Part shown: piece after piece, positions 1,307-22,904 of the stretch
How the letters are laid out: each line of letters begins with the position of its first letter
Numbering within the stretch: the first letter of the stretch is position 1
Origin: PVC group bacterium
Lineage (GTDB): Bacteria; Auribacterota; Erginobacteria; Erginobacterales; Erginobacteraceae
DNA length: 29,289 nucleotides
Direction: 5' to 3'
Assembly (NCBI GenBank): GCA_043804695.1
Contig: JAZDIV010000085.1
Span: forward strand, 1 to 29,289
The notes under the pieces: generated by a model
What the model saw: the letters and a program-made list of their open reading frames with translations, nothing else
Databases searched by the model: none
Told to the model about the DNA's origin: nothing
Position numbers and translations under genes: made by a program

Positions 1307-1389
1307 ATTTCATCCCCCTCCCATCCCAACGAGGGGAGCACCTGAATTATGTTATGACCAGGTGAATTAGTTTTTTTGGTTTTCTTTCA

Positions 1390-4300
1390 TTATTCCGGGA
1401 TATTAAAAATGGAGCGGGCAAAATCCAAAAACTTAGTTTTTCTTTCTACATATACGGGTATTGGTTCTTTAACGATATACTCCACGTCATACCAATGTAG
1501 AAATGATTCGATCTTATTAAGATCCTCAGGAGACAGTGAATTGGCGAGCTGGGTTAATTCGATTTTCATTCTATTAAGACGTTCCGGATTCCCACTTTCT
1601 TCCATGTAATAAGATTCATCAAATCCGAAGGCAAGCAACAACTTGGCCCTGGTGACCGTGTCCTCTTCATTCCAAAGGGAAACAACCTTCCGGGCCATAT
1701 GGTACCGCTCAGTTACTTGAGTAATATTGCTGCTGGAAGTATAAGCTTTTTTCCCCTCATAATCTTCCGGACTGGATGTGGCTATCCGTTCCAGTTCGGG
1801 TTTTAAGGATCGAAGGTCCGCGGCCCAGATATGCCAGATGATTTCGGTGAGGTTTTGATTTGTTTCTTTAAGGTGCGGTCTGAGTATGCTTTTAAGTTGT
1901 GATTTATATTTTGCCCCTCCGGACTGGGCTAAATAGGTTAAGGTGGAGAGAACGTCTTGGTATACGTCACCAGATTCACTCTTATTGAGGGCATTAGTAA
2001 TAATATAGAAGTATTTCGTTCCCCCTCTGAGAGCCAGCGCCCGGCAAGCTTTAGCCAAAGTGAAGTTTATTACATCGTCCCCCCCTTTAGGCCCTAAGAG
2101 TTGAAGCAAGGCGTTATCAATCTTTTGATCCGGATAACGGAGCGGATCATCAGCAGGAACAAGACAATCTATAGCCTTACCTCGTTCCTTCCAGCCGCTG
2201 CCAGGATCGAGAGCAACCTCAATCAATGCCTCCACCCGTTGATCTTCATCCGGGATGGCTTTAGCTTGTTCCAGGACTGAGAAGGCAGAGACAGTAAGAT
2301 CCCCCTTTTCAGCAGGCGGTATCTTTTCTGCTATTTCCCGAGCCTTCTTTTCATTTACTTCGGTAAGTGCCTCAAATGCCTGCCGGGCTATTTCCCCGTT
2401 TGAATTATTTAATAATTGTTCAAGAACAACGATATATTGTTTCGGGTAGTGAAATTCCAGTCGTTGTAATGCCCAGGTATACCCTTCTTTTCGGGAAAGG
2501 ACCCAGGCTGCAAGATCTCCCGGCTTATTCGCCAACTCCAGTTTTCGGATAGCCAGTATCAGGGCTCTGCGTAATTGATAGAGATAGATCGCTTTTTTAT
2601 CGTATCCCTTCCCATAGGAAAAAATTTGACGGGCCAATCGTTTCCCGTCGTTTCTTATCTTTTCTGATGCATGTTTGATAATTAATTCTTCCAGGCTGTT
2701 CTCATTTTCATCGGGTGGGGGAAGCTGTTGTTGTGCCTTGGGAATAAGAGAGGAGAGAGCAGATATAACGAAATCTCCGACTGCTTCTACAGAAACCTGC
2801 ACTATTTTTAAGGATATGTCCCTTTGATCAGGAGAGAATAGATCTAAAAACCGCCGGGACAATTCTGTAATAGTAGCCATGTCTTCATTACAGAGATTTT
2901 TTCTGAATGAAGTTTTTTCCGGGGATTCTTTCAGATCAAATAATGCCCAGCGATTACCAAGATATTCAGGGAGGGCGGCAGAGATCAGATACCGGGACAG
3001 GTTCAGAAATATCTTTTTATTATAATCAGCATCCCAGCGCTTTGAAATGGCTGTGGTCCCCCAGATGGTTCCATCATATTCAAGACCATTTTTTCCGGAA
3101 TCCGGAACTATTTCAATGGCCCCCAATCCATCGGCGGAACTCCAACCACCGGAAGTAAATCTATCGCCATTTTCCTTTCTTTCGCTCCGGACACGATCCA
3201 GCCACCAAACTGTTTCTATTATATGTTTGGCCTCGTTATAATTTAAATTGCACCAGCGAAAATCATAGCAGGTTTGAGCGTGGATAGGGTTATAACCGAC
3301 TATCCCCGGGCTTTGAGTACAAGCATACGCAAGATAGGATTCCCGGGGATCGCAACGCAGGAAGTAATGGGCGTCTATGGTAACGTAGCTTCGATCTGAG
3401 TAATATGAAAAGTGGAGAGAGCAGACAGCCGGTGGTCCTCGATCATCAAGATCGTTAAGGGCGAGGCGGAATTGTTCCCGGTGATCGGAGGTCCGATTGA
3501 CGCGAGCAAATTCTAACGCAGCCTTCTTGGGGGGTACGTTCCAGAAGTCTTTTGGAAGATGCGTTATTATAACCGCTTCCTTTTTAAGATCCCCAATTGA
3601 CTTTCCCTTATCCATATAATGAACAACTTCTTTATCAGATAGCTTTTTAAGAGAGATATACCTGTAGGATTGATATAATTTTTCGGGGGCGTGGGGAATA
3701 TGGATATGCTTTTTGGGGGTCGATGGTATGAGTGCGGGGATATATCCAAGTCCACCAACTTTTTTCAATGTCTCAAGCTCATTCCATACATCAGCCGGGG
3801 CAACCATTCTGAAGTGATCTCCCGGTTCTCCCTGGGGACCAACGTATTTTCGCTTCGCTTCATCCCAACGATAGACAATCTTGGGTTCGATCCCATCATT
3901 TATTTTTGGACCAAGTTCTATCTCATAAATTCCGTCACGATCGGCATTATTGATTCGGTAGCCCCATTCATTTCCCTCATTCAAACGTGATTCATGCCAG
4001 TTATAAACCACGGCCAATAATATTTCCGCGTCTTCTTTAACTGCCGTCACTTCCAGAACATCAACATCATAATCTTCCTGAATCCCGTAACTGGTGTAAT
4101 CAACCCTCTCGATGAGACCATCTCCATTAATGTCAAATAGATATCCATCGTTAAGCATGTTACCGCCGCCAAAGGGATATATAGGTTTGCCGGTTGATGT
4201 GAACCCGACAATTACCATTTCTTTTTTGCGTTCTTTTTCCTGGCCTTCTTTTTCTTCCTTTTTCTGAGGCGGAAATAATCGAGAGACATTATCATCGGGG

Positions 4301-4629
4301 TAGCTATCTTCATCCTGGGCCAGATAGTCTGTGGGGAGTTTAAAGAGAACGAGAAATATCGGAAGTCCTCCATTGCTTTGAGGGCACACAATAAGTTCCA
4401 GATCAGTGATGTGAGGCAATATCTCGAAAATATATTCCTCCTCCTTTGTGGCAGAGCGTCGATACAGTTCGGTAAAAGCAGCCAATTGGGACTCTTCCAA
4501 CTGTAATAGTTCTATCAACTTTTCCCCACTTAAATGATTGAATTCCTTTACTTCGCCGGCTGCTTGTTGTTCTATTGGTGAGGCTGAAACAACAAGTACG
4601 TAAAAGATAATAGCAGCAATTCTTTTCAT
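1390..4629 (-). CDS. Large secreted hypothetical protein with C-terminal HEAT/ARM-like helical repeats
   Basis: 1079-aa ORF with a signal peptide, DINGDG/DRDG acidic loops near the N-terminus and HEAT-like segments (IARQAFEAL, ERGKAIDCL, LAKACRALA). Confidence 0.8.
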   Translation of the reverse strand: MKRIAAIIFYVLVVSASPIEQQAAGEVKEFNHLSGEKLIELLQLEESQLAAFTELYRRSATKEEEYIFEILPHITDLELIVCPQSNGGLPIFLVLFKLPTDYLAQDEDSYPDDNVSRLFPPQKKEEKEGQEKERKKEMVIVGFTSTGKPIYPFGGGNMLNDGYLFDINGDGLIERVDYTSYGIQEDYDVDVLEVTAVKEDAEILLAVVYNWHESRLNEGNEWGYRINNADRDGIYEIELGPKINDGIEPKIVYRWDEAKRKYVGPQGEPGDHFRMVAPADVWNELETLKKVGGLGYIPALIPSTPKKHIHIPHAPEKLYQSYRYISLKKLSDKEVVHYMDKGKSIGDLKKEAVIITHLPKDFWNVPPKKAALEFARVNRTSDHREQFRLALNDLDDRGPPAVCSLHFSYYSDRSYVTIDAHYFLRCDPRESYLAYACTQSPGIVGYNPIHAQTCYDFRWCNLNYNEAKHIIETVWWLDRVRSERKENGDRFTSGGWSSADGLGAIEIVPDSGKNGLEYDGTIWGTTAISKRWDADYNKKIFLNLSRYLISAALPEYLGNRWALFDLKESPEKTSFRKNLCNEDMATITELSRRFLDLFSPDQRDISLKIVQVSVEAVGDFVISALSSLIPKAQQQLPPPDENENSLEELIIKHASEKIRNDGKRLARQIFSYGKGYDKKAIYLYQLRRALILAIRKLELANKPGDLAAWVLSRKEGYTWALQRLEFHYPKQYIVVLEQLLNNSNGEIARQAFEALTEVNEKKAREIAEKIPPAEKGDLTVSAFSVLEQAKAIPDEDQRVEALIEVALDPGSGWKERGKAIDCLVPADDPLRYPDQKIDNALLQLLGPKGGDDVINFTLAKACRALALRGGTKYFYIITNALNKSESGDVYQDVLSTLTYLAQSGGAKYKSQLKSILRPHLKETNQNLTEIIWHIWAADLRSLKPELERIATSSPEDYEGKKAYTSSSNITQVTERYHMARKVVSLWNEEDTVTRAKLLLAFGFDESYYMEESGNPERLNRMKIELTQLANSLSPEDLNKIESFLHWYDVEYIVKEPIPVYVERKTKFLDFARSIFNIPE

Positions 4630-4767
4630 TACTGATAATCCATATTCCCCATTTCCACTCTGGGGAACTTATATAAAGGATAACTCAATACGTCGGCTCC
4701 CAGACGTACTTGCCAACTGTCAAAGGAGATAGTTCTCACCCTGAGATGTTTTTCTTAAGGCTGGATA

Positions 4768-5004
4768 TTATAGTTCTTCTTTCTTCAAGCTTCCTTTCAA
4801 AGTTATAAACAATATCCCGCCTGCTACAACAATGATGAAGATCCTGAAAAAGTTTGGTCGATATGCCAGTACAACAGCATGCCCCCAGCTTTCATTTTGA
4901 TTAGAACTCCATTTTCTATCAAAATGGTAAATCCCAAACAGGATCTCAAACAAAATTATCAATACCGGGATTATTATCAGAATTGATTTTTGTTTAACAT
5001 TCAC
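4768..5004 (-). CDS. Small membrane protein (2 TM)
   Basis: 78-aa ORF with two hydrophobic segments, co-oriented with its neighbours; GTG start. Confidence 0.65.
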   Translation of the reverse strand: MNVKQKSILIIIPVLIILFEILFGIYHFDRKWSSNQNESWGHAVVLAYRPNFFRIFIIVVAGGILFITLKGSLKKEEL

Positions 5005-5086
5005 TTGATTTCTATTCCCACCTCTGATCCCGTCGGGGGGATTATCTACATTACGTAATGGTCGGGCGAATCAGGTTGTCAGCGTG

Positions 5087-6850
5087 TCAGTGAATCGGTT
5101 TGAGATCGCTGGGGAATTTGGTCCCGGTTTCCCCTTCCCATCGTTCAACCTCGTCATCTGTCCAGATCTGAACATTGCGTAATCTTCCTGTAGATCCAGG
5201 ATTGTTATTACTATCCTCTGGGGGTTGCTCAGCTCCAATCTCATCCAAGAAGCTAAAGGTTATCTCTTGCCCATCCCCTTTATTCGAGGCGATAGTGATT
5301 TCCCCGTTTTCCCTCTTATAAATCCAGGGCTTATCTGAAAAGGGATCCGGGGAAAGAGAGGCGACGTAATCAGGTACAAGTTGCTTAAGGGTTTCGGGAT
5401 AAGCTCCATTCTCGATCCAGTACAATCGCAGTCCCGCGAGAAGCAATGTTAATCTCCGCTCGGCAGTGCCCCATCGGTCTTGATCGGCAAGATCAATATA
5501 CTTGGGAATGGAATATCGTATAAACCAATTCTTTTCTCTGCGCTTAGAAGCCAGTGCATATTGTTTTTTCATCTCCTCGTATTCTGGGGAATACGGGGGG
5601 GTAAAACACAGTGCTTCCAAAGAATCCAACCAATGATTGGTCAATACCATGGTGGACGAAGACGGAAACCGAAGAGTGTTCCATCTCCAATTCAGGTTTG
5701 TTAATACTTTCTGCAGTGTCGTGAACTCCGGTAACCATTCCGCTTCCGGCGTCCTATAAAGGTCGTATAGCCATAGGTTATTGAATCTTAATTCGAAGAT
5801 CAGACTTCTTCTCAAAGAATTTTGAAGTAGCGCATCTAATCCTTCAAGTTCCTTCAATATTACTCGGCAGGTTTGTGCCTTTAACAAATCAGACATTAAT
5901 GATTCACGTAAAAGTGAGTGAAAAGGCGTTTCACTAACGAGGTTGATAATAGCTGTAATCAGCCATCCCGGATCGCTGAGTTGTTTGAAGATTTTTGTTG
6001 TTATAAGTATTTCCGGGAGACTGTCATCAATCCCCTTTTCTCCTAATGCCAGACCGGTATTGGCCAGGGCAATTTTAATTATTTTCCAAGTACCTTGCCC
6101 ATCATCGTTGATTGGATACCAATCCATGTAAGATGGTAATTCCGTTGTGGTTATCGGGCCGATAAACTTGGTCTGTTGGGCACCTTTTTTGATTAAGTCC
6201 AATAGTTCCTGATGATTACGGAGCCATTCCGCCAAAACCGGATATTCTTCCGCCTTCCAGGGTGATTGAGGAGGAAAATTTCCACCCATACACAACTCAT
6301 CAAGGTCAACTCCATCTAACATTTCTACTGCTTGTCTGTAGTATGTGGCAGCGTTTATCTCCGGAGAGATCGCATTTACTTTTTCTTGTTGGAATTTACT
6401 AAAGGCTCTTTGGACAGCATGAGGGTCACCACTCTCCAGCGCTTCAATCAGAGGAACGATGAAAACAACATAGACAAGGAAAAAGACGCCTATAATCACC
6501 AAGCTTATTATTCTGAACAGCCCTTTCCTCCAATATTTCCGGAATATGATAGTAGCGATGTAACCAAGGATTAGATTTTGCAGTGGGATTATCACGACAA
6601 GAAATGGCTCTATGACGCGCACCCATCTTTCGATTATCAATGAAGGCAGGATAACATTAGGAATCAATAACAGGATTATGCTGACAGGGAAACAAACGGG
6701 GATAAACAAAGCGGTGGCCAGGGTTACATTAAAGACTGTGACAACCAAAAGCCCCAGTAAGCACCAGATCACGCCTATCGCGATCGGCAAATAGGGGAGC
6801 GATCTGGTTTTCCCGGACTTGCTGGATTTAGGGTCATCTGTCCTCATCAT
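5087..6850 (-). CDS. Membrane-anchored hypothetical protein with a C-terminal pseudopilin (GspG)-like motif
   Basis: About 4 N-terminal TM helices; C-terminal LLLAGLRLYWIENGAYPETLKQLVPDY...PDPFSDKPWIY. Start overlaps the upstream stop (ATGA). Confidence 0.8.
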   Translation of the reverse strand: MMRTDDPKSSKSGKTRSLPYLPIAIGVIWCLLGLLVVTVFNVTLATALFIPVCFPVSIILLLIPNVILPSLIIERWVRVIEPFLVVIIPLQNLILGYIATIIFRKYWRKGLFRIISLVIIGVFFLVYVVFIVPLIEALESGDPHAVQRAFSKFQQEKVNAISPEINAATYYRQAVEMLDGVDLDELCMGGNFPPQSPWKAEEYPVLAEWLRNHQELLDLIKKGAQQTKFIGPITTTELPSYMDWYPINDDGQGTWKIIKIALANTGLALGEKGIDDSLPEILITTKIFKQLSDPGWLITAIINLVSETPFHSLLRESLMSDLLKAQTCRVILKELEGLDALLQNSLRRSLIFELRFNNLWLYDLYRTPEAEWLPEFTTLQKVLTNLNWRWNTLRFPSSSTMVLTNHWLDSLEALCFTPPYSPEYEEMKKQYALASKRREKNWFIRYSIPKYIDLADQDRWGTAERRLTLLLAGLRLYWIENGAYPETLKQLVPDYVASLSPDPFSDKPWIYKRENGEITIASNKGDGQEITFSFLDEIGAEQPPEDSNNNPGSTGRLRNVQIWTDDEVERWEGETGTKFPSDLKPIH

Positions 6851-7935
6851 TTCGTCGGCTCCCAGACGTACTTCCCGGTTTTGTCGATGTAGCCTATCTT
6901 GTCGTCAACTGTTACCTGAGCCAATCCGCCGATGAAGCGGCGTGCTTTATCAAATTGAGGCTTGATAATAAATTTTCCACTCTTGTCGATGTAGCCCCAC
7001 TTCCTTCCGACCTGAGCAAGTGCAATGCCTTCAACAAATTGGTCTACCAGGTCGAATTCGGGCTTAATAATCATTTCACCTTTCCCATCAATATATCCAG
7101 ATTTGATATCTCCCTCTTTCGTAGTTAACATTACCCCGGCGAGTCCTTCTGAGAATGGCAATCCTAAATCATATTGCGGCCCAATTACATACTCCCCTGA
7201 TCGGTCGATGTATCCAAACTTTTCTTCCTTGTTTCTAACAGCCGCAAACCCTTCAGAGAAACCATCGGCCACTATTTCAAGTTGAGGCGGTATTACCATC
7301 TTTCCGGTCTTATCTATAAATCCGACTTTGCCATCAACTTCAACAGCTGCCATTCCTTCGGAAAAATTTCTTCCACCATCATATTTTGGTTCAATGGTAA
7401 ATTCCCCTGATTCATCTAGATAACCCCACTTTCCATTTGCCCATCCTCCAGGAGAGGTACCGTCGAGGATATGCTCCTTCCATTCCCCACCAACCATTAC
7501 CAGGGCCAATCCCTCAGAGAAAGGATAGGCATAATGAAATTGGGGACCAACGACTAACTTCCCAGAGGTATCGATATAGCCATAAGCACCCGATTGAGAA
7601 AACCAATTGCCTTCAAAATTTATTAAAGCCATTCCCTCCTCAAAATACCATGCCTCATCAAACATCGGTTGAATTACCATCTTTCCGGTTTCATCGATAT
7701 AACCCCATTTCTGTTTTATAAAATCCCAGACAGGGGCGAGGCCTTCCGAAAAATATCTTGCAGTACCAAACCGGGGCTCGATCACCATCTCCCCTGATTT
7801 ATCGATATATCCCCATATCCCGTTAACTTGAACAGGGAACAAAACGACAGAATCCTCCTGGTTCTCTATCGCGTTTGCCTGTTGAGAGACCAGGATGGTT
7901 AAGAGGGCTAAAAAAACGATGAGCAATTTTTTCAT
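6847..7935 (-). CDS. Secreted WG-repeat (KWG/WG_beta_rep) protein
   Basis: Signal peptide followed by repeated FSEGLA...KWGYIDKSG.MVI.P.F units; ends GKYVWEPTK. Confidence 0.93.
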   Translation of the reverse strand: MKKLLIVFLALLTILVSQQANAIENQEDSVVLFPVQVNGIWGYIDKSGEMVIEPRFGTARYFSEGLAPVWDFIKQKWGYIDETGKMVIQPMFDEAWYFEEGMALINFEGNWFSQSGAYGYIDTSGKLVVGPQFHYAYPFSEGLALVMVGGEWKEHILDGTSPGGWANGKWGYLDESGEFTIEPKYDGGRNFSEGMAAVEVDGKVGFIDKTGKMVIPPQLEIVADGFSEGFAAVRNKEEKFGYIDRSGEYVIGPQYDLGLPFSEGLAGVMLTTKEGDIKSGYIDGKGEMIIKPEFDLVDQFVEGIALAQVGRKWGYIDKSGKFIIKPQFDKARRFIGGLAQVTVDDKIGYIDKTGKYVWEPTK

Positions 7936-8055
7936 TGGTTTACGCCTATTTTTCCACTCTCTTCCTATCGAGGGAGTGCGCTTAGATTCTCCCGGTAAAA
8001 CTTGAAGCCAAGCAGGAGGGATATTCTGAATTATATCGTTAGATTATTATTATTA

Positions 8056-9507
8056 TTATTCCTTTTCTTCGCGCCGAAAAAGATAAGATTCTTTGTTATG
8101 AGTTTCTTTATAAAAATCTTCTACGGATGCTGATGGGAGCAAGAAGACCTCCCCATTATGTCTAACAGCATATAGCTTTTGATAAACGATGGGGGCATAT
8201 TCGTAAACAGGTAGGTTAAGGGACAGAACTCCATCGGCAAATATTCCTTTCCTTTCCAAGGTAAATGCTCCAAGGCATCCACCAGAAGATAATTGGACAC
8301 GGTATTCACCTGGACCAGTTTTTAGAATCGTCAGGCTGCTTCCTTCCAGGAATCCATCTTTGGTCCATTCCCCCGAAATGTCTATGTGCTTACAGAGGTC
8401 ATCTTCTTTGGGTCTGGCATGATCTTTTAACTCTGGTTGCCAGGGGAATAGTCGTTGGGAATATACGTACTTACCGGTCTTGTTAATATATCCAGATTGC
8501 TCTCCAATCACGGCTTCAGCTAAGCCATTAGAAAATTTATAAGCCTGATCAAATTGGGGTTCGATAATTATCTTCCCCATTTTGTCAATATACCCGTATT
8601 TCCCCCCAATCCATACAGGCGCCAAACCTTCTGAAAACCAGTCAGCATTGTAATATTGAGGTTCGATAACCATCTCACCAGCTCTGTCAATATAACCAAA
8701 CCTGTCACCAACTTTAACTAATGCTCTTCCCTCAGAAAACATGGCGGCGTGATCAAACTTCGCTTCAATAATTACTCTCATTGACTTCTCTATGTATCCA
8801 TATTTATCGCCTTCTTGATATGTTGCCAAGCCATCAGAAAAAGTCCAAATCCATTCGAATTGGGGTTGGAGATTAATCTCCCCATTTTGGTTTATGTATC
8901 CATACTGATCACCGATCTTAATCAAAGCCAACCCTTCGGAGAATGGATTAGCAATATCCAACTGCCGGTTGGTGATCATGTCACCCTCTTTATTGATATA
9001 ACTATTCCTATTCCCAATCTCAACCGATGCCAAGTCTTCAGAGAACCACTGAGCATCATCAAACTGGGGTTTGATAACAACTTTTCCAGCCATATCGATG
9101 AAACCATGCTTATTTTTAATCGTTATTCTGGCCAGTCCTTCTGTAAATGTCCAAGCATTATCAAATTGTGGTTGGATCACAACTTTCCCGGATTTGTCAA
9201 TGTAGCCCCATTTCCCATCAATTTTGACCGGTGCTAATCCTTCGGAAAAACCATAGGTATCTTGAAAACTGGGTGGGATTATTATTTCTCCAGTCTGATC
9301 AATGAACCCCCATTTCCCATCAACCTGAACAGGGAATAAAGCAATGGGCTCCTTGTTTGCTATCGCTGTTCTGCTGATGATACTGGGTAGTAGCCACGCA
9401 CTAATGATGGCTATGATGCATAATAATAAGAACAGAGCACCGTCAATATTGACCGAGAGGATATCCCGCCGGCCGTTCTTATCTTTCCTGTAGATCCACA
9501 GAGACAT
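8056..9507 (-). CDS. Membrane-anchored WG-repeat protein with an additional C-terminal domain
   Basis: N-terminal TM segment, repeated FSEGLA.V...GKWGYID units ending at GKYVY, then about 130 aa of unrelated sequence containing two Cys. Confidence 0.92.
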   Translation of the reverse strand: MSLWIYRKDKNGRRDILSVNIDGALFLLLCIIAIISAWLLPSIISRTAIANKEPIALFPVQVDGKWGFIDQTGEIIIPPSFQDTYGFSEGLAPVKIDGKWGYIDKSGKVVIQPQFDNAWTFTEGLARITIKNKHGFIDMAGKVVIKPQFDDAQWFSEDLASVEIGNRNSYINKEGDMITNRQLDIANPFSEGLALIKIGDQYGYINQNGEINLQPQFEWIWTFSDGLATYQEGDKYGYIEKSMRVIIEAKFDHAAMFSEGRALVKVGDRFGYIDRAGEMVIEPQYYNADWFSEGLAPVWIGGKYGYIDKMGKIIIEPQFDQAYKFSNGLAEAVIGEQSGYINKTGKYVYSQRLFPWQPELKDHARPKEDDLCKHIDISGEWTKDGFLEGSSLTILKTGPGEYRVQLSSGGCLGAFTLERKGIFADGVLSLNLPVYEYAPIVYQKLYAVRHNGEVFLLPSASVEDFYKETHNKESYLFRREEKE

Positions 9508-9539
9508 AAGCCGTTTTATCTATATTTTAACGATGCCAG

Positions 9540-9857
9540 TTAAAACACTAACCCTGCCACAAAGGTAATCAGGATCAAATAACCTATATACAATACAGTA
9601 ATAATAACTGTTTGTAAGATGGTAGTGTAACAAGTCCCCCAGATTACAAATCCGGTAAAGAGGGCGATGGGAATCAATATTGCAGCGGCTAAGTCTTCCC
9701 CCCAGAAATAGCCTATAGCGAATATGCACAGGCTGATTAAGATCGAGATGAAAAAGGTCTTATAAAATCTGTATTCCGCATTTCGCCTGGCCACAAGATA
9801 CAGGATCAGACTCAACACAAAAGGTGAAAGATAGTAACTGATCAAGGAACTGAACAT
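9540..9857 (-). CDS. Small integral membrane protein (about 4 TM)
   Basis: 105-aa strongly hydrophobic ORF, co-oriented with the block. Confidence 0.7.
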   Translation of the reverse strand: MFSSLISYYLSPFVLSLILYLVARRNAEYRFYKTFFISILISLCIFAIGYFWGEDLAAAILIPIALFTGFVIWGTCYTTILQTVIITVLYIGYLILITFVAGLVF

Positions 9858-10140
9858 GTTGCTTAGGGGTTATTGTCTCCATCGTCTTGATAGCTGATAC
9901 AGAGCCATCAGGCCCAACGAAATCTTACTCCCCTTTTCTACTCTCTTCAAGGTAAATCCCCGGTCACATTGAGGTGGGGTGGATGGGCCTACTCCATTGA
10001 AAGACCTTGATACGGCTTACCTTATATGTTATACTTTTTTTCTCAAGCAGACCGGAACCGGATAGGTGGGCAAAGATACGGTGCTTGGCAGCTTCGTGGG
10101 ATTCTGAGGTCAGGGGGGGTCGTGTGTGAGGGCTCCGCTA

Positions 10141-10188
10141 TTAGCATATGAACTCATTCACCCGTCACATAAAGTGATGGGGGTTTTA
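10141..10188. repeat. IS200/IS605-end-like hairpin repeat, copy A
   Basis: TTAGCATATGAACTCATTCA-CCCGTCAC-ATAAA-GTGATGGG-GGTTTT, homologous to the copies at 17960 and 18031. Confidence 0.7.
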
Positions 10189-10242
10189 GAGCAGGGGCTG
10201 GTATGACAAACCTCTCATGCAGCTCACATGAGGGGAATTTTG

Positions 10243-10271
10243 TTGTCTATAATCGGGTGGGCTATTATATT
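10243..10271 (+). promoter_or_regulatory. Sigma70-type promoter for tRNA-Arg
   Basis: TTGTCT-17 bp-TATATT about 30 nt upstream of the tRNA. Confidence 0.6.
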
Positions 10272-10300
10272 GAATTCACATTTTCCGGAGGAAAATGTGA

Positions 10301-10374
10301 GCCCCTGTAGCTCAGGAGGATAGAGCACCGGTTTCCTAAACCGGGTGTCGGCCGTTCGAATCGGCCCAGGGGTA
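10301..10374 (+). tRNA. tRNA-Arg (anticodon CCT)
   Basis: Cloverleaf: acceptor GCCCCTG/CAGGGGT, D-arm GCTC/GAGC, anticodon arm CCGGT-TTCCTAA-ACCGG, T-arm GGCCG-TTCGAAT-CGGCC. CCA is not encoded. Confidence 0.96.
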
Positions 10375-10378
10375 TATT

Positions 10379-11050
10379 TTATTCCGGGCTCTTGAGAACC
10401 CGGAATAAAATAGTGCCCGAGATCAGCAGCCAGCAGAGAACGGCCGCTCCCAGGGCGGAGGCGGGGAGGAAGAGCCGGTCGGCCGGTGATATCTGAAAAC
10501 CCCGCAACACCCCGTACACCCCCAGCGACAGGAGCGCCCCCACCACGCTCGCTTCTCCCCAGGGTATTCTTCCGGCCGGGACGGACGTTTTCGGACGGCG
10601 GATGAAAATCAAGGCAAAGAGGGTCTGGACGATGATGACAGCGGCAGCCGCCAGAACCAGTATATACATCTCCTGGAAGAACGACGCCGGCGCGGGCGGC
10701 CGGACGGCCTTCCCGAGGAGAAGCAGCCGGGGATAGATCAGCTCGGCCAGCCGAAAGTACACGGGATAGAGGAGGAGCGGAAGGAGCAGGAAGATCAGCC
10801 CCGGGATTACTTTCAGAAGGCGCACGGGCGACGGGGGAAAGGGAAGCAGTGCGGACGGGTACACGCGGTACCGGATCATCCGCGCGTATCCATGGTATGA
10901 ATACCAGACCCGGTTGCTCCCCCAGAGGCGCACGGAAAACCGGTACCGGCCCAGCCGGGAAGAAAATGCCGGATTCTCCTGGCGACGGCCGGGGCTTCTT
11001 CCCGGTCCCCGGTGATAAGAGTACCCGGTTTTTCGATCAGGAAGCTTCAT
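10379..11050 (-). CDS. Hypothetical membrane protein
   Basis: 223-aa ORF with a basic N-terminus and about 4 TM helices; start uncertain. Confidence 0.65.
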   Translation of the reverse strand: MKLPDRKTGYSYHRGPGRSPGRRQENPAFSSRLGRYRFSVRLWGSNRVWYSYHGYARMIRYRVYPSALLPFPPSPVRLLKVIPGLIFLLLPLLLYPVYFRLAELIYPRLLLLGKAVRPPAPASFFQEMYILVLAAAAVIIVQTLFALIFIRRPKTSVPAGRIPWGEASVVGALLSLGVYGVLRGFQISPADRLFLPASALGAAVLCWLLISGTILFRVLKSPE

Positions 11051-11132
11051 TAGATCAGCCCTCTCATTTTCCCAGAACCGGCCATCAGTCTATTACAAGA
11101 GGATTTGATTTCCAACTAAAAAGTCACGGTCA

Positions 11133-11161
11133 ATTAAGTAGCGCCTTCGGCGCTACTTAAT
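11133..11161. repeat. Perfect hairpin ATTAAGTAGCGCC-TTC-GGCGCTACTTAAT
   Basis: 13-bp perfect stem; the core TAGCGCCTTCGGCGCT recurs at 19595-19610. Confidence 0.7.
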
Positions 11162-11291
11162 ATTCAGAAGCAGGAACAGGCATGAAATTTTAATTGACCA
11201 CCCCGGAGCAGGACGGTATGTTAAGAGCCGGTAGAATAGATTAAACGCAAACAATTCAAACCGTTTGAACGGTTTTACAAAGGAGGAAGGA

Positions 11292-11987
11292 ATGAGAAAA
11301 TGGATCTGGTTTTTTTCCCTGATCGCGGCCGTCGCCCTCGCCGGCTGCATCAAGATGGACCAGGACATTACCCTGAACAAGGATGGGTCAGGCAGCGTCA
11401 AGTTCATGTACGGCATGAGCGAACAGACCATCAACCAGATGCAGACCATGTCCGAGATGAACAAGCAGGAAGGGGACGATCAGCCTGAAGACGACAACCC
11501 CTTCGAGTTCAATGAAGAGAAGGTTAAAAAAGAGTTCGCGGCCCTGAAGGACAAGGGGATAACCCTGAAGAGCGTCAAGACCACGACCGAAAACGGCTGG
11601 AAGTACATGCACGTCGAGTTCGATTTCAAGGATATCTCCCAGCTCAACGATGCCGACGTCATGGGAGACAGCCCGATCACGATCGCCAAGGACGCCGCGG
11701 GTAATTACGTCATCACCTCCAAGATGACCGGAGAGGAGATGGGCGCCGGCGACGCCGATGCCGAGCAGATGAAAGCCATGCTCCCGATGCTGGCGGGGAT
11801 GCGGATGGCGTTGAAGGTCACCACCCCGGGCAAGATTATCTCCACCACCGCTCCGATCAAGACTGCCGACTCCGCCCAGTGGGTTTTCGACATCGATAAA
11901 GACCCGGACTCGGTCATGAACATGTCGAAGACCAAGATGGAGATCGTCTTCGACGGCACGGGGTGCACCATCCCGGAAGTCAAATAA
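11292..11987 (+). CDS. Lipoprotein (LppM/DUF3153-like)
   Basis: AGGAGG RBS; lipobox LAGC followed by IKMDQDITLNKDGSG; C-terminal TTPGKIISTTA...QWVFD. Confidence 0.85.
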   Translation: MRKWIWFFSLIAAVALAGCIKMDQDITLNKDGSGSVKFMYGMSEQTINQMQTMSEMNKQEGDDQPEDDNPFEFNEEKVKKEFAALKDKGITLKSVKTTTENGWKYMHVEFDFKDISQLNDADVMGDSPITIAKDAAGNYVITSKMTGEEMGAGDADAEQMKAMLPMLAGMRMALKVTTPGKIISTTAPIKTADSAQWVFDIDKDPDSVMNMSKTKMEIVFDGTGCTIPEVK

Positions 11988-12081
11988 TTATTTTATTTCT
12001 GCGAAATAAAATAAATGCAGTCTGGAATTCATAATTTCCAGGCTTGTCACAAACAAACGTTATTCGACGTCTCGATATACG

Positions 12082-12123
12082 AAAAAAGCAGCCCCCGCCG
12101 TCAGCGGCGAGGGCTGCTTTTTT
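12082..12123. terminator. Bidirectional rho-independent terminator
   Basis: AAAAAAGCAGCCC-CCGCCG-TCAG-CGGCGA-GGGCTGC-TTTTTT. Confidence 0.8.
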
Positions 12124-12159
12124 ATTGAATGAAACAGAGGTTTTTCGGTTAAACACAGT

Positions 12160-13122
12160 ATGAAGAACAACGGCGTCATTTTTCTTATTCTGGCCGGACT
12201 CATCCTCACCGGCTGCGCGTCGGGGCTCCATTTCACGGCCGAGGAACAGCCGGACGGGGGGATACTCTACACCGATAACCCACCCGGCAAAACCGGTACC
12301 GGCAGCCAGGTCGCCAACCTGGTCACGGGGGAAAAGCTCACCTACGACGTGAGCTGGATCGGCATCCCGGTCGGACAGCTCGTCCTGGAGAATCACGGCC
12401 TCGAGGTCATTAACGGCGAAGAAGCATATCATCTGACCTTTGCCACCATCTCCAACGAGTTCCTCTCCAACTTCTTCAAGATCGAGGACACCGTTCACAG
12501 CTGGGTTTCACGGGAGAGCGGCTCTCCCGTTCGTTTCGAAAAAGTGGTCAAGGAAGGGCACTACGGCAGACACGAAGTCATCGAGTACGACCGGGAGAAC
12601 CTGACCGCCACTTACCGGCGGGAGGACAAGAAGGACCGGGAACCGGAGACGATGAGCATTCCCCCCGACGCCCAGGATCTCCTCAGTACTCTCTTCTGGA
12701 TACGGCGCCAGCCGATGGGCCTGGGCAAGCAGCTGAAGCTGAACGTGAACGCCGACCGGAAGAACTGGGATGTCGAGGTGGAGATTATCGAGAAGGGTCT
12801 CTTCGAGACGGAACTGATCGGGAAGGTCAAAGCGTTCGCCATGGTGCCGAGCGCCACTCACAACGGCGCTCCGCTGAAAAAGGGAGACCTCCTGGCCTGG
12901 ATCACGGTGGACCGGCGGCGGATTCCCCTCGCCTTCGAGGTGGAGACCCCGATCTTCGGCAGCGCGGTGGCGCTCCTGAGCGATGCCGTCCTCCCGGAAC
13001 TCCCGGACGACGACACCGAGGCGCCCGAGGAGGAGGAGACACCCGAACACATTTATGGAGCGGGTGACTGGATCAGGGGGCTGACCTGGTCGGTGGAACA
13101 CTCCCCCTCGTTTCCGCGATAA
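12160..13122 (+). CDS. DUF3108 domain lipoprotein
   Basis: Lipobox LTGC; GEKLTYDVSWIGIPVG, FFKIEDTVHSW, QDLLSTLFWIR and WITVDRRRIPL motifs. Confidence 0.85.
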   Translation: MKNNGVIFLILAGLILTGCASGLHFTAEEQPDGGILYTDNPPGKTGTGSQVANLVTGEKLTYDVSWIGIPVGQLVLENHGLEVINGEEAYHLTFATISNEFLSNFFKIEDTVHSWVSRESGSPVRFEKVVKEGHYGRHEVIEYDRENLTATYRREDKKDREPETMSIPPDAQDLLSTLFWIRRQPMGLGKQLKLNVNADRKNWDVEVEIIEKGLFETELIGKVKAFAMVPSATHNGAPLKKGDLLAWITVDRRRIPLAFEVETPIFGSAVALLSDAVLPELPDDDTEAPEEEETPEHIYGAGDWIRGLTWSVEHSPSFPR

Positions 13123-13195
13123 CCCGGAGTATTCATGAAAATTTTCATTTTTCATGAATACTCTACTATAGATACTATCTCCGGCATTGTTCAAA

Positions 13196-18270: not shown

Positions 18271-19590
18271 TTAGGCTTCGTCCCGGGAGAGGAGCTCGGC
18301 CATGGTCAGGGTGCCGCCGGTCTCTTCCAGCGAGCGCTTGAGGATCTCCTCGATCCGGAGGACCGTTGGCGACGTTTTGAGTGGGGGCGGGATGACGACC
18401 GGGCCGCCGGAACTGCGGAGGGCGTGGACGACAGACTTCAAGGTCATCGTGCTCAAATCGCGGGCGGGCTGGTAATAGCGTTCTTCCCCCGCAATCTCGT
18501 TGAGCAGCCCCCCGTCCGCCATCTGCTGAAGGGACTGGTTGACCAGCCGGACCGGAACGTTAAAATACCCGGCTAGTTCCTCCGCGGCGGCCGGCGGCAC
18601 GCCGGCCAGGAAACGGGAGCCGATCCTGACCAGAAGGTTGAGGGCAACCAGCTCCTGGTAATTCCAGCTCCGGGAGAGCGCGGCCTCTTCACCATAGAAC
18701 GTCCGGACATTCTGGACCGCGAATGAAATCTCCGCCCCCAGAAGAACAATATTCCAGCTGATGTATACCCAGACCAGGTTGATCGGGATCGAGGCCAAGG
18801 CGCCGTAGATGCTGGCGTACTTGACGAAGCCGAGCTGGAAGGTGATATATCCCCAGAGGGCGGCCTGCCAGGTCAGGCCGGCAATCAGACCGCCGACCAA
18901 GGCGGCTGTCAGCCTGACCCGGGTATTGGGCATGAAGACGTAGAGAAAAGAAAAACCCAGGCAGATGAGGAGACGGTTCATCACCTCCCAGAAGAGGGCC
19001 TGCAGGAGGTGGAAGTGGAGCACGGACTGTACCATCTCGTTGGATCGGAGCACACCCCCGATCGCGACACCGGCCGCGACGAAGATCGGCACGATCAGAA
19101 GCACGCTCAGGTAATCGGTGAACTTCCGCCAGATAGTACGGGACCTCCGCACGCCCCAGATGTGATTGAAGGAGAACTCGATGTTTCCCATCACGGAGAT
19201 AATGGTCACGATCAGGAGCGCCAGGGCGGGCGGCCCCAGAGTCCCGGCACGGATGTTGTCGACGAACATGAAGAGCCGGTCAGCGATCTCCTCGTTCCCC
19301 AGGGTGACGTTCTCGGCCAGAAAATCCTTGAGGGGACTGATATTGAGACCGAAGGAGCGCGCCAAAGCGAAGGCGAAAGCCAGGAGGGGCACCACCGAGA
19401 GAAGCGACGCGTAGGTGAGAGCGGAAGCGCGGAGAGGACAGCTGTCCTTCAGGAAGCCGCGGATCACCATATAAACAACCTTGAACAGGCGCACCATCAG
19501 GCGGCGGACGCCGGAGAGGGTGGAGATTTCCAGCGCCCAGATGTCCCGGGTAAAAAAGTTAATATATCGACTGAGAAGGGATGGTTTCAT
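18271..19590 (-). CDS. YihY/BrkB family inner membrane protein with a C-terminal Rrf2-like winged helix
   Basis: ASALTYASLLSVVPLLA, IEFSFNHIWGV, YASIYGALASIP, WNIVLLGAEISF; C-terminal ELAGYFNVPVRLVNQSL...YQPARD. Confidence 0.92.
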   Translation of the reverse strand: MKPSLLSRYINFFTRDIWALEISTLSGVRRLMVRLFKVVYMVIRGFLKDSCPLRASALTYASLLSVVPLLAFAFALARSFGLNISPLKDFLAENVTLGNEEIADRLFMFVDNIRAGTLGPPALALLIVTIISVMGNIEFSFNHIWGVRRSRTIWRKFTDYLSVLLIVPIFVAAGVAIGGVLRSNEMVQSVLHFHLLQALFWEVMNRLLICLGFSFLYVFMPNTRVRLTAALVGGLIAGLTWQAALWGYITFQLGFVKYASIYGALASIPINLVWVYISWNIVLLGAEISFAVQNVRTFYGEEAALSRSWNYQELVALNLLVRIGSRFLAGVPPAAAEELAGYFNVPVRLVNQSLQQMADGGLLNEIAGEERYYQPARDLSTMTLKSVVHALRSSGGPVVIPPPLKTSPTVLRIEEILKRSLEETGGTLTMAELLSRDEA

Positions 19591-19683: not shown

Positions 19684-19712
19684 TTGACAAGCCAATCAGG
19701 GGTTGGTAGCCT
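19684..19712 (+). promoter_or_regulatory. Sigma70 promoter for the pck leader
   Basis: TTGACA-17 bp-TAGCCT with an extended -10 TG. Confidence 0.7.
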
Positions 19713-19719
19713 ATCTGGT

Positions 19720-19852
19720 TGGGAGGCGCAAGGTTAAAGTCCTACGGTGCGGTGGGTAATGCCGCCAGGCGTCTTTATTATGCGCCGGTCAGCCGGGGCC
19801 GGCGGCGCCGGGCGGCGGGGTCCGGAGGTTGGCCGTTCCCCGCCGCTTTTTT
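19720..19852 (+). ncRNA. Candidate riboswitch/attenuator upstream of pck (resembles the Na+-sensing DUF1646 motif)
   Basis: 5' stem (GGCGCA/TGCGCC, AAAG/CTTT, CCT/AGG, CGGT/GCCG), a competing 12/13-bp antiterminator (19761-19773 with 19804-19816) and an intrinsic terminator. The class assignment rests on a recalled consensus only. Confidence 0.65.
19812..19852 (+). terminator. Intrinsic terminator within the pck 5' leader
   Basis: GCGGCGGGG...CCCCGCCGC followed by TTTTTT, about 60 nt before the pck ATG. Confidence 0.8.
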
Positions 19853-19911
19853 ATCTCGAAACCTTTCGATCGACAGCCGCAGCAGATCACAGAGCAGAGG
19901 AGACCCGAAAC

Positions 19912-21789
19912 ATGACGGAAGTAACGAACATTCTGAAATCGAAAATGGACGCGGACAATTACCGGCGGCTGGCAGCGCTCGAGAACGAAAAGCTGAACGC
20001 TTTTATCGCCGATGCCGTCGCCCTCTGCGAGCCCGCCGATGTCTTCGTCGCCGATGACTCGCCCGAGGCGGTGCAGCAGACGCGGGATCAGGCCCTCGCG
20101 GCCGGCGAGGAAAAGCCGCTCGAAACGCGCGGCCACACGGTCCACTTCGACGGGATGGAGGACCAGGGCCGCGACCGGGAGGTCACCCGGTACCTGGTGC
20201 CCGAAGGAGAGACGCTTTCCCCGTCGCTGAACCAGGCGCCGCGAGGGGCCGGTCTTGAGGAAATCCGTGGGCTGCTCGCCGGGTCCATGCGCGGCCGGAC
20301 GATGATCGTGCGGCTCATGACACTGGGACCGAATAATTCCGTGTTCAGCATCCCCTGCGTGGAATGCACCGACTCCTGGTACGTCTCCCACAGCCTGAAC
20401 CTGCTCTACCGTCTCGGCTACGAAGATTTCAAGCGGATGCAGGATAAGAGCGGTTTCTTCGCGATCCTGCATTCGTGCGGGAAAATCGACGACCGCATGA
20501 TCAGCGTAGAGTCCGACAAGAAGCGGATCTATATCGACTACTCCCGGGAGACCGTCTACAGCGTGAACACCCAGTACGCCGGCAACACGGTCGGGCTGAA
20601 GAAGCTGGCGCTCCGGCTCGCCATCCAGAAGGCCGACCGCGAGGGCTGGCTGGCCGAACATATGTTCCTGATGGGCGTGAAGGGCAAGGGCGGACGCAAA
20701 TCCTATTTCGCCGGAGCATTCCCAAGCGCCTGCGGGAAGACTTCGACCGCGATGCTGCCCGGAGAACAGATCATGTGCGACGATATCGCTTACTTTCGCG
20801 CCATGGACGGGCGGTGCATGGCCGCCAACGCCGAGTCCGGAATCTTCGGCATCATCCAGAACGTCAGCGCCAAAAGCGACCCGGCGATCTGGGATGTGCT
20901 CACCAAGCCCGGCGAGGTCATCTTCTCCAATATCCTGGTCAAGGACAAAAAACCCTACTGGCTCGGCATGGGTTGCGACACGCCCGACAGCGGCGAGAAC
21001 TTCTCCGGTGCCTGGACCCGGGGGAAAAAGAACGCCCAGGGCCAGGAGATCCCGCTCGCCCACAAGAACGCCCGTTACGCGGTGCGGTTGGGTGACCTGG
21101 CCAATTGCGATCCGGAACTCGGAAATCCCGGGGGCGTCAAGCTGGACGTGATCATCTATGGCGGACGCGACCTGAAGGCCTATGTGCCGGTCCAGCAGAG
21201 CTACGACTGGGACCACGGCATCGTCGCCTACGGGGCGGCACTGGAGACGGAAACCACCTTCGCCACCGTCGGCCAGGAGGGTGTGCCGGAAATCAACATG
21301 ATGAGCATCCAGGACTTCGTGGCCATACCGTTCGGGGAATACATCCAGAACGATCTGGATTTCGGGAAGAAACTGACCGCGGCGCCCGTCATTTTCGGCG
21401 TCAACTACTTCCTGTGCGGGCCGGACGGCAAATTCTTGAATGGGGTCCGCGACAAGCACGTCTGGATCCGCTGGATGGAACTCCGGATCCACGGCGACGC
21501 GGGCGCCGTGCGCGCGCCGACCGGGCTCCTGCCGAAATATCAGGACCTGGCGCCGCTGTTCCGGAGCGTTCTGGACAAGGAGTACCCGGAGGCGGATTAC
21601 CTCACGCAGTTCACCATCCGCGTCCCGGAGAACCTGGCCAAAATGGAGCGCGCCGAGGCCTACTACCGCAAGGAATCGTGCGTGCATGACGTCGTATTCC
21701 AAATCCTGGCCGACCAGCGCGGCCGCCTGCTGGCCGCACAGAAGGAGTTCGGCGATTACATCACGCCGAACCGTCTGCCGGAGGGCTGA
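19912..21789 (+). CDS. pckG: Phosphoenolpyruvate carboxykinase (GTP), archaeal-like subtype
   Basis: YAGNTVGLKKLALR, WLAEHM, P-loop AFPSACGKTSTAM, DDIAY, HKNARY, IYGGRD, IFGVNYF. Start chosen at the ATG after the GAGGAG RBS. Confidence 0.95.
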   Translation: MTEVTNILKSKMDADNYRRLAALENEKLNAFIADAVALCEPADVFVADDSPEAVQQTRDQALAAGEEKPLETRGHTVHFDGMEDQGRDREVTRYLVPEGETLSPSLNQAPRGAGLEEIRGLLAGSMRGRTMIVRLMTLGPNNSVFSIPCVECTDSWYVSHSLNLLYRLGYEDFKRMQDKSGFFAILHSCGKIDDRMISVESDKKRIYIDYSRETVYSVNTQYAGNTVGLKKLALRLAIQKADREGWLAEHMFLMGVKGKGGRKSYFAGAFPSACGKTSTAMLPGEQIMCDDIAYFRAMDGRCMAANAESGIFGIIQNVSAKSDPAIWDVLTKPGEVIFSNILVKDKKPYWLGMGCDTPDSGENFSGAWTRGKKNAQGQEIPLAHKNARYAVRLGDLANCDPELGNPGGVKLDVIIYGGRDLKAYVPVQQSYDWDHGIVAYGAALETETTFATVGQEGVPEINMMSIQDFVAIPFGEYIQNDLDFGKKLTAAPVIFGVNYFLCGPDGKFLNGVRDKHVWIRWMELRIHGDAGAVRAPTGLLPKYQDLAPLFRSVLDKEYPEADYLTQFTIRVPENLAKMERAEAYYRKESCVHDVVFQILADQRGRLLAAQKEFGDYITPNRLPEG

Positions 21790-21944
21790 GCCACGGAAGG
21801 TAAATCAGGCCAGGCATCCCTGCCGGACCAGGGACGGACGGCCGCAGCAATTTTTATGATGACCCCAGAGGCCCCGGGGCCGGGTTTGCAGGATTGCTAT
21901 GGTAATATCTTTTTAAATAAGGCCAGACTCAGGGGAGATTAATC

Positions 21945-22904
21945 TTGAAGATGACCATTTTTGTCAGCCGGCCGATCCCGGAGCCGGCGATCGACGTTTT
22001 GAAGAAGGCCGGCTTTCAGGTCGAGGTCAACCCGGAAGACCGGATCCTGATGGCGGATGAACTGGCAGCACACTGCCGGGGAAAAGACGGGCTGCTCTGT
22101 CTTTTAACCGACACCATCGACCGCGCTTTTCTCGACCGGACCCCCGGCCTGAAGGGGATCGCCACCATGGCGGTCGGCTATGACAACATCGACATCGCGG
22201 CGGCCGCCGAGAAAGGAATCCGGGTCAGCAACACCCCGGGGATCCTCACCGACGCCACCGCCGACCTGGCCTGGGCGCTCCTGCTGGCAACCGTCCGGCG
22301 CCTCCCGGAGGCGACACGGTACCTCCGCGCGGGAGAGTTCACCGGATGGGGGCCGATGCTCTTTCTGGGCGGCGACCTGCAGGACAGGACCCTGGGCATC
22401 GTGGGGGCGGGGAGAATCGGGACCGCCGTCGCCCGGCGGGCGCGCGGCTTCGGCTTATCCATCATCTATGCCGATCCCGAAAAGAACCGGGCTCTGGAAA
22501 AGGAAACCGGGGCCAGAAAAGTCGATTTCGAGACCCTGCTGAAAGAGGCCGATTTCATCACTCTCCACGTCCCCCTGAGCGAGGAAACCAGAAACCTGAT
22601 CGGCCGGCGGGAGCTGCGCCTGATGAAGAAGACGGCCTACCTGATCAACACCTCCCGGGGTCCGGTGATCGATGAAGAGGCCCTGGCGGAAGCGCTCCAG
22701 GAGGGCGTGATCGCCGGGGCCGGCCTGGACGTTTACGAGAAAGAACCCCACCTCCATCCCAGTCTCCTCTCCCTGCAGAACGTGGTTCTGCTCCCTCACA
22801 TCGGGTCCGCCACGATCGGGACCCGGACCAGGATGGCGACCATGGCGGCTGAAAACCTGGTCGCGATGATGCGGGGGGAGACGGCTCCCAATCAGGTAAA
22901 CTAA
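21945..22904 (+). CDS. D-glycerate dehydrogenase/glyoxylate reductase (D-2-hydroxyacid dehydrogenase)
   Basis: AVGYDNID, NTPGILTDATAD, GIVGAGRIG, LINTSRGPVIDE, GLDVYEKEP, PHIGSAT. Start may be the ATG at 21951. Confidence 0.93.
   Translation: MKMTIFVSRPIPEPAIDVLKKAGFQVEVNPEDRILMADELAAHCRGKDGLLCLLTDTIDRAFLDRTPGLKGIATMAVGYDNIDIAAAAEKGIRVSNTPGILTDATADLAWALLLATVRRLPEATRYLRAGEFTGWGPMLFLGGDLQDRTLGIVGAGRIGTAVARRARGFGLSIIYADPEKNRALEKETGARKVDFETLLKEADFITLHVPLSEETRNLIGRRELRLMKKTAYLINTSRGPVIDEEALAEALQEGVIAGAGLDVYEKEPHLHPSLLSLQNVVLLPHIGSATIGTRTRMATMAAENLVAMMRGETAPNQVN

Follow-up and report, generated by a model that had tools for sequence, protein, structure and literature searches.

The 29,289-nucleotide stretch of DNA analyzed here, referred to as the window, contains a gene for GTP-dependent PEP carboxykinase (pck), and the leader in front of this gene raises the question of whether transcription into pck is switched and, if so, by what. 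The gene occupies positions 19912–21789 of the forward strand and encodes a product of 625 amino acids, which scores 576 bits against NF003253 (cut-off 504) and matches PF00821 and PF17297. The sequence places a ribosome-binding site, AGGAG, at 19898–19902 of the same strand, 9 nt upstream of the ATG. The promoter reported in the first-pass annotation, TTGACA-17-TAGCCT, has the right coordinates, with the –35 hexamer at 19684–19689 and the –10 hexamer at 19707–19712 (forward strand), and the predicted transcription start at about 19718–19720 leaves ~193 nt to the ATG at 19912, in agreement with the leader of about 190 nt described there. The 9-bp terminator with six U residues is likewise found at 19812–19852 of the forward strand (–25.6 kcal/mol), where 19812–19820 pairs with 19838–19846 to form the base of the stem and six T follow at 19847–19852. 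Since the upstream neighbor of pck, a gene for a YihY/BrkB-family membrane protein (18271–19590), is divergent on the reverse strand, this terminator cannot be the end of an upstream gene. A consensus scan of the window missed both elements, the promoter because TAGCCT matches at three of six positions and the terminator because its loop is larger than 8, and so both calls stand on their conservation in eight relatives.

Orthologous pck leaders were found in six of the 13 other genomes of the order (G002 and G005–G009) and at two of 67 metagenome loci, which were left after 13 of the 80 fetched had been dropped for want of upstream DNA. The PEP carboxykinases of these eight loci are 74–78% identical to that of the window. 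Each of the eight leaders contains both promoter boxes, with the U run 84–88 nt downstream of the –10 box, and the spacer between the two boxes is 17 nt long in all nine leaders including that of the window. Identity to the window is 0.94 in the –35 box (45 of 48 aligned cells), 0.77 in the –10 box (37 of 48), 0.60 in the 5′ element or segment 1 at 19717–19735 of the forward strand (81 of 136), 0.83 in the 5′ arm of the terminator and 0.98 in the U run (47 of 48), compared with 35 of 136 cells in the promoter spacer and a neutral yardstick of 0.47. Among the relatives themselves, pairwise identity is 1.0 in the 5′ arm of the terminator, 0.86 in the 3′ arm, 0.76 in the 5′ element and 0.42 in the middle region, against a yardstick of 0.68 at four-fold degenerate pck sites. 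The genes upstream of the orthologous leaders vary between genomes while the leader is kept, suggesting that the promoter, the leader and pck travel as a unit. In agreement with the first-pass annotation, a pck leader with its own promoter and intrinsic terminator is seen in the eight relatives and also in a contig of a closer relative. Judged from sequence, the promoter, leader and terminator before pck are a real, conserved terminator-type leader that is absent from Rfam, and because pck has its own promoter followed by a conserved terminator, its expression would need read-through.

The identity of a possible ligand is a separate matter. The leader had been tentatively assigned to the Na+ (DUF1646) riboswitch on the basis of a core motif, and a search against Rfam does not bear this out. 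In a scan of the whole window at the gathering threshold, one tRNA is the only match, and RF03071 and RF03057 (cut-offs 40.5 and 37 bits, respectively) give no match at E ≤ 10 on either 351 nt or 85 nt of the leader. The best match on the 85-nt stretch, twister-P1, was rejected at 13.1 bits against 67.2, its conserved loop and linker being missing. The leaders of ten relatives give chance-level matches and no Na+ or Li+ model. According to PMC9337991, a Na+-I riboswitch is built from GGUUG, a distal stem, a UU bulge, CAAGA and a GGGUG loop, the 3′ strand of which doubles as the terminator arm. These riboswitches are ON switches in which P2 overlaps the terminator, so that the OFF switch predicted for the window leader clashes with a Na+-I identity. 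The window has in common with Na+-I a short 5′ leader and an intrinsic terminator, as well as GGUUG at 19717–19721 and CAA at 19729–19731 as a P1 base with a pair probability of 0.04 at most, but it lacks the distal P1 stem, the UU bulge and CAAGA. The words GGUUG and CAAG are not cited in the first-pass annotation. Seven unpaired nucleotides lie between UUG and CAA, with GG following, and all eight relatives have CU or CC in place of the GG of GGUUG. P2 of Na+-I is ~7 bp long with a gGGGUG loop, its 3′ strand being the terminator arm, whereas in the window the nearest hairpin carries GGGUAAU as a 7-nt loop and is separated from the terminator by 47 nt, and the target of Na+-I is ion transport and not pck.

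It is highly improbable that the leader is a diverged member of the Na+-I/Li+-I superfamily sensing an alkali ion, although the window has GGUUG, 7 nt, CAAG and then GGUG at Na+-I-like spacing, the terminator arms of the relatives (GGCGGGA and UCCCACC) differ little from those of the Na+-I constructs in the supplement of PMC9337991, and one genome of the phylum does contain true nhaA-I riboswitches. The partial GGUUG/CAAG word with the following GGUG occurs 18 times in the genome, the GGGUG loop is missing, and RF03071 exceeds its cut-off in none of 41 related genomes; in the window's own genome it is not among the matches listed, with 150 of 299 candidates scored. The core motif behind the Na+ assignment differs from the Na+-I consensus, and its AGGUU and, 26 nt on, GCCGCCA are nearer to the Li+-I (nhaA-I, RF03057) or Na+-II variant as given in PMC9646797, but this assignment fails as well. 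The GGGU-stem-AGGU P1 and the GGUCGGGCCGCC P2 are missing in the window, AGGUU and GCCGCCA are not conserved in the relatives, the full Li+-I word does not occur in the genome, and RF03057 exceeds its cut-off in one of 21 genomes, not at pck. Within the phylum, G018 carries three nhaA-I riboswitches of the Li+-I or Na+-II type over the Rfam cut-off (C75:4566–4618, C75:1543–1597 and C80:3059–3110); downstream of the first is an ORF of 103 aa, membrane-like, in the vicinity of a cation antiporter-like gene. Separately, a weak RF03071 match of 23.8 bits lies after a tRNA in G003 (C414; L032:1501–1581), has GGUUGG, UUCAAGA and a broken P2 loop, and appears to be one of two tandem repeats.

The fold drawn for the window leader, a nested stem serving as an aptamer, stands in its outer part only. 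Its two outer helices are predicted, but the two inner helices as drawn reach pair probabilities of at most 0.07 and 0.001, and the nested fold as drawn costs 4 kcal/mol relative to the free fold. The predicted OFF-state fold is a rod at 19725–19786 of the forward strand, in which 19725–19730 pairs with 19781–19786 and 19735–19739 with 19773–19777. The pair probability of these outer helices is 0.92–0.98 at three of four transcript lengths and about 0.48 at the fourth, and the rod duplex amounts to –13.7 kcal/mol; the stability of the 5′ fold is unremarkable next to that of shuffles (z –0.87 and z –1.26). For the full transcript, the predicted fold is rod plus terminator at –70.6 kcal/mol, compared with –62.1 kcal/mol when the antiterminator proposed in the first-pass annotation is enforced. 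This antiterminator, in which 19761–19773 pairs with 19804–19816 of the forward strand, does have complementarity at 12 of 13 positions and overlaps the terminator arm by 5 bases as described, but in a leader with 67% G+C such a match is no better than chance, being reached by 112 of 1000 dinucleotide shuffles. In predicted co-transcriptional folding, its probability is 0.87 at length 19818, 0.45 at 19822, 0.07 at 19826 and 0 at 19834, and at length 19820 rod and antiterminator are within about 1 kcal/mol of each other (P 0.48 vs 0.38). It thus leads only around 19818–19822. The terminator arm is sequestered at least as much in 35, 149 and 155 of 200 shuffles along this length series, and the antiterminator is best described as a possible, transient pairing that is not conserved. 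A leader peptide is not apparent in the window, where start codons in the pck frame occur at 19747, 19759 and 19780 and have no ribosome-binding site, and no conserved short ORFs were seen among the leaders of the relatives. Reiterative transcription on a U tract after +1 is a further known control mechanism; it was rejected here, the UUU tract being missing in three of the eight relatives and in the window.

Comparison with the orthologous leaders separates the conserved from the private parts of this architecture. The promoter, the 5′ element and the terminator are kept, but the inner fold has an identity of 0.05 to the window with 72% gap cells, and the antiterminator lies mostly in sequence that is absent from the relatives. 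Since the eight leaders are 46–50 nt shorter, neither the inner aptamer nor the 12/13 antiterminator is conserved. It might still be argued, leaving Na+ aside, that the long rod is an aptamer whose stabilization by a ligand blocks the 19761–19773/19804–19816 pairing, giving an OFF switch in this genome. The near balance of rod and antiterminator at length 19820, the lead of the antiterminator at 19818, the counterpart of the outer rod in the relatives and the recovery of an unchanged long form in an independent run speak for such a switch, but it is improbable given that its inner part is missing from all eight relatives and from the contig of the closer relative, that chance alone yields the antiterminator so readily, that the rod forms at ~0.9 without ligand at most lengths, and that pattern scans of genome contigs and of viral contigs and a search of 78 other genomes of the phylum gave no second example.

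The extra sequence itself lies in the middle region at 19734–19811 of the forward strand and is seen in this genome only, the distance from the –10 box to the U run being 134 nt in the window. The exact placement of the 46–50 additional nucleotides depends on the alignment; covariance model R1, built on the short leaders, places one 50-nt block, and there would be two blocks if 19773–19788 is the counterpart of segment 2 of the G002 leader, with which it agrees at 14 of 16 positions (a level reached by 2 of 300 shuffles). In keeping with this, modeling supports the outer rod (19725–19739 with 19773–19786) as the counterpart of the pairing between segments 1 and 2 of the short leaders, the predicted OFF-state fold. 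In a DNA contig of a closer relative, whose two flanks resemble those of the window at ~85%, 49 letters stand in place of the 100 present in the window, so that of the two forms the long one is more likely to be derived; the tree alone is silent on which form is older, because the PEP carboxykinase of the window is sister to the other eight. The extra sequence has no match in the 78 other genomes of the phylum and is single-copy in its own genome, and none of the leader 20-mers has more near copies in the genome than G+C-rich shuffles suggest. Pattern matches to the extra segment, 10 in genome contigs and nine in viral ones, were discarded, 18 of the 19 lying inside ORFs of at least 120 aa. 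Part of the extra sequence, at 19733–19779, is bounded by short inverted ends, TAAAG and CTTTA, flanked in turn by direct repeats of TTA, an arrangement resembling the footprint of a very small insertion. One RNA-run contig matches the window at 19721–19876 without a difference, and so the long form is seen in an independent run. Its alignment from 19721, with three further letters unaligned, is a weak hint of a transcript start, and it ends 24 nt past the U run and may derive from DNA; it fits a transcript from the predicted start, although such contigs show neither transcript starts, ends nor strand. The RNA-run contigs cover neither the pck frame nor the upstream gene, an absence that proves nothing in contig data.

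Conservation thus directs attention to the two ends of the short leader. At the 5′ end, a hairpin termed P1 with a GCAG(G) loop folds in seven of the eight short leaders at –4.5 to –11.7 kcal/mol; L055 has no P1, and the registers slip between leaders. In one register, 25 of 32 cells pair and two of four pairs change on both sides, and the percentage paired is reached by none of 500 shuffles, with the register picked by eye and the sequences related. An alternative 5′ helix of CUUUG with CAGGG pairs in all 39 cells with no both-sided change. A 17-mer of the G008 P1 is identical in the pck leader of G010 (L014:1453–1469), where it lies 32 nt before the pck start, after a promoter-like site and without a terminator; G010 belongs to another family and its PEP carboxykinase to the other deep clade. 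Exact pattern matches in five genomes number three, all at pck, while seven of eight one-mismatch matches lie inside long ORFs. A one-mismatch copy with the GCAAG loop of the window lies at a contig start, L269:12–28 (G012:C282). The occurrence of the hairpin without a terminator in G010 suggests that its role may be unrelated to termination, such as 5′ end protection or a DNA operator. In the latter case, the inverted repeat would bind a dimeric repressor just past +1, and the terminator would be independent or end a stand-alone small RNA. Its position at +3 to +20 and its retention in G010 are consistent with an operator, and the short RNA contig that covers just the leader with a small RNA, but changes in the stem keep G·U pairs and slip in register as RNA does, and no conserved second promoter lies between the U run and pck, which leaves this explanation very improbable.

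At the 3′ end, the terminator arm CGGCGGG (19813–19819 in the window) is invariant in all nine leaders. Opposite its second C, all eight short leaders have an A, and this C·A mismatch costs 5.4–6.0 kcal/mol, whereas the window has a C–G pair at position 19842. The pyrimidine-rich 13 nt before the arm, segment 2, complement both GCAGGG (segment 1) and GCGGGR (segment 3). These complementarities are matched by 22 and 40 of 2000 shuffles, respectively, or by 7 and 62 of 2000 when the 13-nt window alone is shuffled, counts that overstate the case because the segment windows and the P1 register were picked after viewing the sequences and the leaders are related. Pairing of segment 2 with segment 3 appears in truncated transcripts of five of the eight short leaders. 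In whole-transcript ensembles, upstream pairing of the arm is less probable than in shuffles (summed probability 4.02 vs 5.08; 195 of 200 shuffled sums are higher), and so an antiterminator is not supported by this measure. In these models, the low upstream pairing of the arm fits either a default-OFF leader or no switch.

These features lead to a tentative preferred reading, held at somewhat less than an even chance, that the leader is a default-OFF, pck-specific attenuator of one clade of uncultured bacteria that is turned on when a trans factor holds P1. RNA polymerase would start about 7 nt past the –10 box and meet the intrinsic terminator 40–60 nt before the start codon, and pck would be made only on read-through. 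In the short form, four segments would compete. Segment 1 lies within P1, and segment 2 could pair either with segment 1, forming the rod, or with segment 3, the look-alike terminator arm. If segment 1, or a purine-rich stretch 3′ of it, holds segment 2, the terminator would form, which would be the default OFF state; when a trans factor holds P1, segment 2 would be free for the terminator arm, giving the ON state. The conserved C·A mismatch would weaken the terminator by 5–6 kcal/mol and thereby help segment 2. Since P1 is only 15–19 nt long, too small for the usual metabolite aptamer, and since this small hairpin persists without the terminator in G010, the likeliest factor would be an RNA-binding protein, perhaps one reporting carbon status. 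The window copy would be a derived version in which P1 is almost lost, the rod is stronger, the mismatch is closed and 46–50 nt have been added. Consistently, the hairpin of its 5′ element is degenerate (–0.2 kcal/mol) and this element is used as the 5′ strand of the rod. The window copy probably terminates more strongly and leans OFF, and any read-through would use the transient 19761–19773/19804–19816 pairing.

A simpler arrangement is that a strong promoter and a leaky terminator set a fixed read-through fraction with no effector, in which case the 5′ hairpin would provide 5′ end protection or be a promoter-proximal feature only, and the extra sequence of the window would be a functionless local duplication. 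This constitutive dampening is somewhat unlikely, yet several observations agree with it: the terminator arm is freer than in shuffles, the middle region is poorly conserved, no antiterminator protein of the CAT_RBD, CsrA or PyrR type was found, and the window has lost P1 and yet retains promoter and terminator. Nor is an invariant mismatch in eight related leaders very unlikely, because stems change slowly and neutral sites are 0.68 identical. However, the exact 17-mer common to a different family and a different PEP carboxykinase clade and the fixed leader length ask for more than a dampener, and segment 2 retains its double complementarity.

Another alternative is an ON riboswitch in which CGGCGGG and the 5′ element would form a pocket during the U-run pause, in the manner of the HMP-PP riboswitch, for a ligand of the PEP/oxaloacetate/GTP node. 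The most conserved bases do lie in the terminator arm (seven of seven invariant in nine leaders), which the terminator alone does not explain given the unpaired C, and a compact leader of about 90 nt has a precedent in the HMP-PP (thiS) riboswitch, which is described in PMC6478431 as a compact leader with its most conserved bases inside the terminator stem. The pck leader resembles that riboswitch in both respects, but it has no Rfam sequence match and no identified pseudoknot, and the gene is different. A metabolite-sensing ON riboswitch is quite unlikely, as the invariant arm has no identified partner for a pseudoknot, the sequence between the two conserved blocks varies freely, G010 retains the 5′ block without the arm, and the short leader has one target gene per genome. 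An extended proposal is unlikely too, namely that a terminator-embedded pocket of CGGCGGG and the 5′ GCAG hairpin represents a new riboswitch class that senses a metabolite of this node and turns pck ON, that it possibly descends from the same ancestor as the Na+-I scaffold, and that the long form of the window is a recent rewiring with a new antiterminator.

Among the nearest known systems, leaders controlled by proteins are the ones relevant to the preferred reading. BglG/LicT with RAT, HutP and GlpP act in protein-dependent antitermination, and PyrR acts with the opposite sign. The pck leaders are like these leaders in having a small hairpin before the terminator and competing pairings and, on the proposed mechanism, in trans-factor control of termination, but they contain no RAT or PyrR-site match, and genes for CAT_RBD and PyrR proteins were not found. 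A BglG-type CAT_RBD gene was detected in none of five genomes (the positive control matched in 4 of 14), CsrA in none of five, and PyrR, presumably the protein represented by NF003549/PRK05205, in none of 14 genomes over the protein cut-off. Likewise, the PyrR-binding attenuator RF00515 gives no model match at any pck leader in five genomes. No ANTAR gene was found in five genomes, but the control matched nowhere.

The leader is narrowly distributed, with nine leaders, one partial contig and one hairpin-only case. Model R1, run over 79 genomes, recovers its six training leaders and five weak matches, which were set aside as a repeat-like terminator, an end-of-gene terminator and three coding stretches; it scores the window leader at 20.5 bits, mostly in the terminator half, with an E-value of 0.2 genome-wide. 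The nine PEP carboxykinases form one clade with a support of 100/100. The enzyme of the window groups with those of genus g2 and of G009, which belongs to another family, and not with that of G001 of its own genus (55% identity), a grouping that suggests transfer or differential loss of two PEP carboxykinase clades.

A leader RNA linked to MpsC/DUF2294 invites comparison, since it too consists of a promoter, a rod-like fold and a terminator. Its hallmarks are a CCRACAU terminator arm and a GGUAGA start, neither of which occurs in any of the nine pck leaders. MpsC-linked leaders were gathered from G003 and, in another phylum, from 10 of 11 loci, and model R2 was built from 10 of these 11 leaders. 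R2 scores two held-out Bacillota mpsC leaders at 24.3 and 19.6 bits and one short pck leader at 9.2 bits, while the window leader is unscored at E ≤ 5 and nothing is found in the genome of the window. The absence of the hallmark word and the failure of R2 to score the window leader indicate that the pck leader and the MpsC-linked leader are different families. The mpsC gene occurs in two of 79 genomes of the phylum, that of the window (G000) and G003; it was not found in the six short-leader genomes G002 and G005–G009 (75–97% complete), beside pck or in viral contigs, and it occurs in 0 of 301 genomes around G079 and 10 of 401 around G082.

In the literature searched, mostly outside subscription journals and exclusive of the motif lists of PMC5737381 and PMC11109978, no riboswitch or attenuator at pck was found, nor was a report of attenuation of PEP carboxykinase or a description of a DUF2294 leader RNA, and the main text of a 2026 preprint on non-coding families makes no mention of such an element. 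Auribacterota are described in the accessible part of PMC9324843 as anaerobes with glycolysis and gluconeogenesis, and carboxykinase is unmentioned there. On the evidence of the aligned leaders, the pck leader is an uncatalogued terminator-type leader, matched by no Rfam family, and the proposed aptamer is a genome-specific elaboration of it. If the leader is regulated, it would represent a compact 90-nt element with which members of an uncultured phylum sense carbon status at the PEP/oxaloacetate node, as well as a leader family at PEP carboxykinase unrelated to the MpsC-linked leader; its narrow range limits its significance.

Several further observations concern the surrounding genomes. The only mpsC of G000 (C150:1–96) has the same N-terminus as that of G003 and is cut by the contig end, so that its leader is missing from the assembly. 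In G003 (C95; L179:1274–1393), mpsC is followed by a leader of the MpsC-linked kind that has a promoter, a rod and a terminator (z –6.4); beyond it come two small ORFs, another mpsC copy and a gene for an amino-acid permease. In the other phylum, the MpsC-linked leaders are found in 10 of the 11 loci L186–L196, and the genes 3′ of them presumably include, as read from their N-termini, isocitrate dehydrogenase-like, bicarbonate-transporter-like and HtpX-like genes. In the window, pck is followed on the same strand, in the region 21790–22904, by a gene for a D-2-hydroxyacid dehydrogenase (glyoxylate reductase-like, below the cut-off), and the 155 bp between the two genes contain hairpins and possibly a promoter of their own. 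A tRNA gene at 10301–10374 adjoins mostly unannotated ORFs and WG-repeat genes on the reverse strand at 857–13194 and may mark an integration site.
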